DNA from: Cirrosporium novae-zelandiae
Taxonomy: Eukaryota
DNA length: 64,000 nucleotides
Direction of reading: 5' to 3'
Assembly (NCBI GenBank): GCA_026023565.1
Contig: JAPETS010000015.1
Span: forward strand, 124,001-188,000
The translations under genes and the position numbers were made by a program. Each line of letters begins with the position of its first letter. The stretch's first letter is position 1. Positions 18,298 to 20,440 of the stretch are shown in pieces. The notes below the pieces were generated by a model that was not told where the DNA came from, did no database searches, and saw nothing but the letters and a program-made list of their open reading frames with translations.

Positions 18298-20440
18298 TTA
18301 AGTATGAGCATTGACAACTGTCATGCCCGCCGATGGTGTTTGTGGGCCTCCTCTATTGCCCCTGGGTCCTCTTCCACGGTAACCTCCATAACCCCTTCCA
18401 CGACCATATCTTCCCCTCCCACGGCCTCTATAACCACCTCGGTAACCATCAACACTTCCTTGTCCAAATGTCTCCAGATTCTTCTTTTGTTCCTCTCCCC
18501 TCCATTCCCTCCCCCCAAGACGGTGTCCATGTGATTCCTCCCTATCTTTGATCTCACTCGAGAGATTGTCAAAGAATGACGTAGACTTATTATAGGTTGG
18601 AGCGGTCGATGTGTGGATACTATGATCACTATCCTTGCGTCCTGGGACTACAGCTGGATCGATACCATTGGCTATGGATTCCCCAGGAGCAGTGAGTGGA
18701 GAGCCACTTGCAATTGCTTCCTTGACCAAATCCTCCTTGTTAAATTTGGCATTGGCAGATTGGAAATCGAAGTCAGTCGCAGGGATTTCAACCTTCCTTA
18801 CTTCTTGCTGACGTCCTCCTCTATAATTACCACGGCCACGATGACCAGTCGGGTAACGTCCGCCATTCTGTCTACCCTGGCCCCGTGGAGCATCTGACGT
18901 TCGTAAATCATTCACCTTCTTAGTAAGATTATCAATCAATGTTTCCCCTTGCTGCGGCTTCTTTTGACCAGGCGCTGGTGGTAATTTAGCCATGGCTGCA
19001 GCAACAGCAGCAGTAGCAGCACGAGTCGCATCATCTACTGCATCTGCTGCTACCTTACTTGGAATAGAAGTAGACGTTGTAGGTATAGCTACTGTATCAA
19101 CGGACTTGGCCTCAGCTACCCCGTTCGTCTTTTGGGCGAGCTTTACTGGACCAGGAAGTGGAACAGCTGGAGCAATGCGAGTATTCTTAGGCCCAGTTGG
19201 GATTGGCTTTGAAGCTACGATGGCTGTAGGGACCGCCTGACTCGTGGATGTTGAAGGCCCAGCCAAAACAGAAGCGACATCGGGTTTTGATTCGATTGGG
19301 GGAGTTGGGGGAACAGGTTGTGGCTGTTTAGATGGCGCAGACTGCGGAGCTGTAGTCGTGTCGGGTTTACTTGCGGGCTTGACAGTTTCCATAGTAGCAG
19401 AGGGTTGGGACACCGGAGTTTGGCTCTTGTTGCTCAAAGGCCTAATTGGAGAGGGTTGAGAAACAGGTGGCATCTGAGGTGGCTGAGTATGGCTAGGCGG
19501 TGCGATGGGAGGTGGAGGTTGATTGAACGGTTGAGGTCCAGGTGGAAAACCCTGTCCTGGAGGGTACCAACCTGGTGGAGCCCCATATGGCATCCCGGGG
19601 AAACCAGGAGCAGGAGGAAAGACACCTGGAGGGCCACCTGGGGGACCGAAGCGCTGACCCGGAGGGGGGTAGTAGTAAGAGTATGGAGGTTGCTGTGGGA
19701 AGGGGGGAGGTTGAAATTGTCGATTTGGAGGTTGCGGAGGCATGCCTGGGTTCACCTGTGGAGATGGCCGAGGGCCACTCTGAACGTACACCAAGCCAGT
19801 AAGTCAGTATATACCTTTCTATCACGGGCGAACAAAAAGAATATGGTATGAGAATTAATCAGAAGGAAGGCAGCGGAAATATCCACATGGGTTTGCGCAT
19901 TCGGAACAGGTCTGTGAATTTACATCCGGACTGTTTCATCATTATAAAGAAGCAGGAGACAAAGCTCCCCTTCATGAAAATAAAATATTGGACTTACTCC
20001 GAGAATTGCGGGATCATTAGGGACTTGGGGAGGCTCAGGTGGTTCATTTTCCTTTTGTTGATCCTCAATGGTAATATCTTTCACGTCACTGCCTCTGAAA
20101 ACAATGTACTCGTAGATACTTGTGGAAGGTGGAATTTCATCTGCGGCATTGTTTCGCCGGCCTTCAGTACCATATGATTGAACGTTCTCGAGGGCTATGG
20201 TCGAGGCTTCGGGGTTGATTTCATGCAAGATACCAACATATCTAACATTTAGTTAGGATAAGATTCCGGTTCGACATGAATGTTATGCGATGGAAGATTT
20301 CGAAGGGAAATATCACATACCTAATGTCGCTCTTAGATATGAGGTTTAACCGTTTACTACCCTCATCGTCAGCTCATTTCGATCTATGTCAAGTTCCTAG
20401 CAACAGGGCTAACCAACCCTATCAAATGGTCCATGGACAT
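18298..20440 (-). CDS. SCD6: Lsm14/Scd6/Sum2 mRNA-decapping activator (P-body protein)
   Basis: Spliced LSm14 domain MSMDHLIG|KRLNLISKSDIR|YVGILHEIN...YEYIVFRGSDVKD. FDF motif DFDFQSANAKFNKE, FFD box SFFDNLSSE, TFG box NLETFG, and an RGG tail. Confidence 0.93.
19856..19946 (-). ncRNA. Intronic box C/D snoRNA with two 18S rRNA guides (snR56-type at D', snR52-type at D)
   Basis: Lies in SCD6 intron 3 on the sense strand. Box C ATGATGA 19942-19936. Guide TCACAGACCTGTT + D' CCGA 19917-19901. Guide GCTGCCTTCCTT + box D CTGA 19874-19859. The guides complement conserved 18S segments AACAGGUCUGUGA and AAGGAAGGCAGC. Confidence 0.9.

Follow-up and report, generated by a model that had tools for sequence, protein, structure and literature searches.

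The third intron of the SCD6 gene in the fungus Cirrosporium novae-zelandiae raises a compact set of questions: does it encode a genuine box C/D small nucleolar RNA (snoRNA), which nucleotides of the 18S rRNA would its guides select, and are the RNA, its host intron, and its two guides equally widespread among the fungi? We addressed these questions with a 64,000-nucleotide stretch of genomic DNA, which we refer to throughout as the window, and with a collection of related loci from metagenomes. A first-pass annotation of the window had proposed that a single RNA at positions 19856-19946 combines two guides that serve separate snoRNAs in budding yeast.

Identity of the intronic RNA

The first-pass annotation had suggested a comparison with Rfam. 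In that comparison the covariance model RF00335 (snoZ13_snr52) scores 87.2 bits on the minus strand, where 47 bits is the gathering score; over the 64-kb window this corresponds to an E value of 3.5e-16, and the match spans the full model, positions 1-101 of 101. It runs from 19853 to 19951, and the span proposed earlier falls within it. RF00335 is the sole Rfam family to reach its gathering score within the window; the snR56 model (RF01188, clan CL00049) scores 44 bits on the same RNA, below its gathering score of 54. No other snoRNA was found in the 64-kb window at an E value of 0.05 or better, and a permissive scan adds just snR56 at the same place. The box order of RF00335 is present, with an AUGAUGA box C toward the 5' end and a CUGA box D toward the 3' end. 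The C, D', and D boxes that had been claimed, like the antisense elements of 13 and 12 nt, can all be read along the sequence. A stable fold of its own was rejected for this RNA (z 0.35), which fits the expectation for a guide RNA. Judged by its sequence, then, the intronic RNA is a genuine, canonical box C/D member of the snR52/Z13 family, with the following features.

19853-19951, minus strand: snR52/Z13-family box C/D snoRNA, roughly 90-99 nt (RF00335 match)
19936-19942, minus strand: box C, AUGAUGA (sequence)
19922-19927, minus strand: GGAUGU element (within CGGAUGU), candidate extra 18S pairing (conservation and complementarity; putative function)
19905-19917, minus strand: D' guide UCACAGACCUGUU, 13 nt (sequence; 18S complementarity)
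19901-19904, minus strand: D' box CCGA, nonconsensus (sequence)
19892-19898, minus strand: GCGCAAA in the loop between D' and C' (sequence)
19882-19888, minus strand: C' box AUGUGGA, degenerate (sequence)
19863-19874, minus strand: D guide GCUGCCUUCCUU, 12 nt (sequence; 18S complementarity)
19859-19862, minus strand: box D, CUGA (sequence)

Relatives of this RNA were gathered with an exact 22-base pattern covering the D guide and box D, which returned at least 112 metagenome stretches. All 112 metagenome loci among the matches listed clearly belong to the snR52/Z13 family, in a sample that is biased because it was gathered by that exact D-guide pattern and that is partly redundant (80 distinct 100-mers among 107 full-length loci). 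Among the 107 full-length loci listed, ATGATGA is the commonest form of box C (67/107), the D' box position reads CCGA in 80/107 and CTGA in 23/107, and the C' box reads ATGTGGA in 63/107. The activity of the D' guide is not assured by its boxes, since both the CCGA of the D' box and the AUGUGGA of the C' box are off consensus.

The SCD6 host gene and its third intron

The minus-strand exons that flank the snoRNA bear out the earlier claim of an SCD6 host: they encode an Scd6/LSm14-type protein with an LSM14 domain (PF12701, E 9.8e-26) and an FDF domain (PF09532, E 1.1e-22). A four-exon model that begins at an ATG at 20440 gives an open frame of 597 codons, and the frame is open solely when intron 3 is spliced out. 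That intron had been described as unusually long, at about 215 nt, and it measures 218 nt, versus 52 and 79 nt for introns 1 and 2. The start of the model (the ATG at 20440) is its least certain part, because the 5' splice site of intron 1, GTTAGC (20408-20413, minus strand), is atypical. The gene model comprises the following features.

20414-20440, minus strand: SCD6 exon 1, with the ATG at 20440 (gene model)
20321-20361, minus strand: SCD6 exon 2 (gene model)
19998-20241, minus strand: SCD6 exon 3, LSM14 Sm-like domain (PF12701, E 9.8e-26)
19780-19997, minus strand: SCD6 intron 3, host of the snoRNA, 218 nt, GTAAGT...CAG (sequence)
19802-19808, minus strand: putative branch site ACUGACU, branch A at 19804 (sequence)
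18298-19779, minus strand: SCD6 exon 4, with a Pro/Gln-rich region, FDF domain, RGG tail, and stop codon (PF09532, E 1.1e-22; open reading frame)

The sequence ACUGACU, which we take to be the branch site on the strength of the branch-site consensus, places its branch A at 19804, 55 nt past box D and 24 nt ahead of the 3' splice site. This layout of splice and branch sites fits a snoRNA that would be released from the spliced intron.

Predicted targets of the two guides in 18S rRNA

The pairing of both guides was evaluated on a complete SSU_rRNA_eukarya of 1,807 nt (L158), a stand-in 18S rRNA that occurs as contamination among the contigs of a bacterial assembly. Eukaryotic rRNA that stands in bacterial or archaeal assemblies as contamination was observed in L158, L125, L134, L121, L124, L130, L144, L164, L165, L173, L186, and L192; by Rfam, the contaminant contigs carry the SSU, the 5.8S, and the start of the LSU, which amounts to 333 nt of LSU in L121.

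Both target assignments of the first-pass annotation withstood this comparison. The D guide, which is the conserved guide of RF00335, forms 12 contiguous pairs at 420-431 of the stand-in 18S rRNA (13/14 over 420-433), its single best site, and A424, opposite the fifth guide nucleotide counted upstream from box D, is the nucleotide selected. The D' guide forms 13 contiguous Watson-Crick pairs at 1428-1440, likewise its single best site, and its fifth-position nucleotide is G1432. The next-best sites on the same 18S rRNA reach at most 10 Watson-Crick pairs for the D guide and at most 9 for the D' guide. The spacing of A424 and G1432 is 1,008 nt, identical to the spacing of yeast Am420 and Gm1428. 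Further, the 11-nt core of the D' guide and its register are common to the Rfam snR56 consensus, with the D' box aligned to the CUGA of snR56, and the G1428 site of this 18S rRNA fully explains the D' region of the snoRNA. These alignments support the prediction that the 12-nt D guide would select the 18S A equivalent to yeast Am420, and they similarly support the prediction that the 13-nt D' guide would select the 18S G equivalent to yeast Gm1428, which is the job of snR56 in yeast.

At position 19873 (minus strand), within the D guide, the window reads C, versus T in 112/112 metagenome loci among the matches listed. The C gives a G-C pair with the 18S rRNA in place of the G-U pair of the others.

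Conservation of the host intron

The same intron in SCD6 orthologs had been named as a point to check, and the host arrangement recurs widely: exons of SCD6, on the same strand and in the right order, surround the snoRNA in 87/112 loci among the matches listed. Among these 87 listed loci the LSM14 exon was found upstream in 84, the C-terminal exon downstream in 48, and both in 45. The distance from the end of the LSM14 exon to the end of box D has a median of 132.5 nt over the 78 listed loci whose alignment reaches the exon end. The host proteins of the SCD6-hosted loci listed are diverse, with identities down to about 27-45% in the LSM14 exon. As for the 25 listed loci without SCD6 matches, 12 are too short in their flanks to judge and 13 have at least 400 nt of upstream sequence.

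A bevy of other positions was seen as well. In L004 and L017 the family copies lie about 400-450 nt past the stop codon of an eRF1 gene, both with the G1428 guide, and the L004 copy occupies a separate intron-like segment (1868-2090, ~220 nt) with GTAAGT...TAG splice signals recognized by eye. Family copies lie inside an intron of an ATP synthase gamma gene in L056 and L067, after a DUF5321 gene in L018, and after a DUF2408 gene in L002, which has six look-alike loci that were left unscanned. From these positions the snoRNA has, to all appearances, moved or duplicated several times.

These comparisons bear on whether the window copy is a working gene at all. Its terminal stem, read from the sequence, is weak, as might be expected of a silent or decaying copy, or of a chance resemblance, from which no stable RNA would be made. 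The strength of the Rfam match and the intact state of all boxes both argue against such a copy, as do the recurrence of the same host intron among the listed loci and the fact that the lone difference in its D guide, C for T, converts a G-U pair to a G-C pair. We therefore regard a silent copy as exceedingly improbable, and the snoRNA at 19853-19951 as almost certainly real.

The persistence of the host intron also invites an explanation in which the snoRNA does more than guide methylation: it, or the assembly of its particle on the intron, would influence SCD6 expression in cis and so tie the output of a translational repressor to snoRNP assembly. Such an action would explain why the family stays in one intron across the listed loci, even where the hosts have diverged to the lowest LSM14-exon identities given above. 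Conserved, translation-related genes, however, are the rule as hosts of intronic snoRNAs, and the link to SCD6 is not obligatory, because the family also occurs near eRF1, in the ATP synthase gamma intron, and after the DUF5321 and DUF2408 genes. We consider a cis action very unlikely.

Known relatives and fungal precedent

In budding yeast, snR52 and snR56 are separate, non-intronic snoRNAs, and SNR52 is an independent Pol III gene, whereas the snR52-family RNA of the window is intronic. In other respects the likeness to S. cerevisiae snR52 and S. pombe Z13 (RF00335) is close: the box order is the same, the D guide for Am420 is the same, the model scores 87.2 bits, and both the RF00335 consensus and the window RNA hold the internal motifs CGGAUGUAAA and GCGCAAA. 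The second guide sets them apart, since the second target of yeast snR52 is given in the available text of PMC3511168 as 25S Um2921, whereas the D' guide of the window matches 18S G1428 instead. For that D' guide the likeness is to S. cerevisiae snR56, human U25, and plant snoR19 (RF01188), with which it shares an identical 11-nt core and a D' box in register; the remainder of the window RNA, its D guide included, is snR52-like, and the 44 bits of the snR56 model stay under the gathering score of 54. According to the same portion of PMC3511168, snR56, U25, and snoR19 share as their target the conserved G equivalent to Gm1428, numbered there Gm1427 in yeast, Gm1490 in human, and Gm1431 in plant.

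The first-pass annotation had cautioned that the combination of guides might already be cataloged, and two published sources bear this out. Canzler, Stadler, and Schor (2018, PMC5824354), in their main text on the fungal snoRNAome, merge snR52 and snR56 into a single clan, CD_19, because of target switches, and they defer the clan's history to Supplemental Section S9; what we reconstruct here may already be described there. With predicted snR52 and snR56 target interactions on one RNA, the window RNA would be a member of CD_19. The main text of PMC5824354 holds none of the terms 'host gene', 'synteny', or 'Lsm14', and literature searches with Scd6, and with pombe sum2 and snoRNA, found no mention of an SCD6 host intron for the snR52 family.

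The second source concerns Trichophyton rubrum, in which TRnc_2545, known from a cloned cDNA of 119 nt, is annotated in a 3' UTR and placed in the Rfam family snR56; its predicted targets are 18S Gm1389 and Am385, with a spacing of 1,004 (Table 2 of PMC3890542). As described there, TRnc_2545 very probably carries the same guide pair in one RNA, in a 3' UTR whereas the window RNA lies in the SCD6 intron. Going by its described position, TRnc_2545 may correspond to the copies downstream of eRF1 in L004 and L017.

Elsewhere in the fungi the published arrangements differ. In Neurospora crassa, the snoRNA listing available from PMC2780460 (Table 1) gives CD42, 92 nt long and intronic, as the homologue of snR52; its D guide (12/0) is directed at 18S Am417 and is the only guide entered for it, while CD19 and CD41 guide Gm1423 from D'. 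That listing thus places on separate RNAs the two guides that the window holds on one, and it gives no host gene for CD42. In Pleurotus ostreatus, the available text of PMC5040776 reports three snoZ13_snr52 copies, one of them intronic. For snR52 in Aspergillus, the papers listed by a literature search dealt with genome editing and strain engineering, and no snoRNA study was among those listed.

Distribution of the snR56-type D' guide

The core of the snR56-type guide is present in 17/112 loci among the matches listed, 11 of them in SCD6 and 6 elsewhere. A motif-free test also separated two groups: 9/61 distinct 14-mers upstream of the D' box, among the matches listed, pair with 18S 1428 over 12-14 contiguous nucleotides; the remaining 52/61 reach at most 9 contiguous pairs anywhere in the 18S rRNA. 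Eleven of those 52 guide-less 14-mers among the matches listed match 18S 466-470 over 7-9 nt, in a register to the D' box that varies. This best match at 466-470 (GTGACAATAAA) was observed in L002, L009, L011, L031, L061, L062, L067, L068, L082, L094, and L103, all without the G1428 guide, and it may represent a second accessory pairing, ~35 nt beyond the D target on its 3' side, or may reflect AT-rich composition.

A tree of the host was built from the LSM14 exon, with 38 rows and 84 columns; its rows are loci with at least 70 aligned residues and with duplicates taken out, a rule that leaves out 68/112 of the listed loci. All 9 guide-bearing rows, the window included, form one clade with support 98/94, and the snR56-type guide was found in 0/29 of the other rows. 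The members of the guide-bearing group differ from one another in flanks, terminal stems, spacer, the nucleotide beside the D' box, and the D' and C' boxes, and the D' box takes the forms CCGA, CUGA, CUUA, and CGGA. The invariance of the guide core in the alignment of that group is there by construction, because its rows were picked by the guide motif, and it is the clade test on the host tree that provides independent evidence. In the sampled loci, then, the D' guide is by all indications lineage-specific to one fungal clade, and the location in the SCD6 intron is apparently much older and more widespread than the D' guide.

This distribution also bears on an alternative in which only the D guide is catalytic, the D' element is a relic or a nonmethylating pairing or chaperone contact, and a separate snR56-type snoRNA makes Gm1428. 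The off-consensus CCGA and AUGUGGA boxes would be expected of such an RNA, the snR56 model remains below its gathering score, and N. crassa offers a living example in the accessible listing of PMC2780460, with a D guide only on CD42 and separate guides for Gm1423 on CD19 and CD41. The D' guide of the window, by contrast, has its 13 contiguous pairs in the exact register of snR56, and it is kept in 9/9 clade rows of the host tree while variation is seen in the spacer and at the position adjacent to the D' box. Nor is CCGA an anomaly of this copy, as it is the commonest D' box of the family (80/107 loci among the matches listed), and strongly diverged C'/D' motifs do function in yeast, according to the abstract of PMC3116282. 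On balance we hold the single-guide alternative to be unlikely, and a double-guide snoRNA of the snR52/Z13 family with both guides active, as predicted from pairing and conservation, to be probable.

Conserved elements outside the guides

Two further elements are conserved along the RNA. The hexamer GGATGT occurs in 98/107 full-length related loci among the matches listed, and GGATG starts 8-9 nt past box C in 98/103 of the parsed loci listed. Its complement in the 18S rRNA, ACATCC, lies at 414-419 of L158 and abuts the D target, which begins at 420, on its 5' side. Extra base-pairing of this kind stimulates methylation in yeast (van Nues et al. 2011, PMC3116282); in the part of that paper available to us, the snoRNAs credited with such pairing do not include snR52. 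A literature search on snR52 and extra base-pairing returned nothing. From its conservation and complementarity we infer that GGAUGU is a candidate extra base-pairing element beside the Am420 target.

The second element, GCGCAAA, lies between D' and C' in 69/107 related loci among the matches listed. The same letters, in sense orientation, stand at 18S 436-442, a short way 3' of the D target; the complement, TTTGCGC, was absent from the 18S rRNA examined.

Proposed mechanism and significance

The release of intronic snoRNAs by debranching and exonucleolytic trimming is well established, and the window RNA would follow this route. The snoRNA would be transcribed within the SCD6 pre-mRNA, and the excised 218-nt intron 3 would be debranched and trimmed by exonucleases up to the snoRNP, which would free the snoRNA. 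The snoRNP, with Snu13, Nop56, Nop58, and Nop1/fibrillarin, would build on the C/D and C'/D' motifs. The D guide is predicted to direct methylation of the A equivalent to Am420, and the D' guide methylation of the G equivalent to Gm1428. GGAUGU probably pairs with the 18S rRNA directly 5' of the D target and, on the extra base-pairing principle, would aid methylation there. The link between the snoRNA and the splicing of SCD6 is one that we infer from the position of the intron.

A more ambitious scenario can be drawn from the same data. The snR52 family would have been kept in the SCD6 intron after the LSm-domain exon, across a wide range of fungi, through a functional coupling (for example, snoRNP assembly that tunes the splicing or output of SCD6); one clade would then have added an snR56-type guide, and GGAUGU would be an undescribed extra-pairing site for Am420. 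We rate this full scenario as quite unlikely. Were the coupling true, the production of an 18S methylation guide would be tied to the expression of a translational repressor and decapping activator.

As one more ordinary representative of a curated family, with a pair of guides already reported in fungi, the RNA itself has little importance beyond correct annotation. To the double-guide reading that we favor, the analysis makes three modest additions, of possible use to snoRNA specialists. The SCD6 host intron is strongly conserved (87/112 loci among the matches listed). The snR56-type D' guide is apparently confined, in our sample, to just one host-tree clade, which would date a target switch. 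Finally, a conserved GGAUGU, able to pair with the 18S rRNA beside the Am420 target, is a candidate for an accessory contact of the family with its rRNA substrate.
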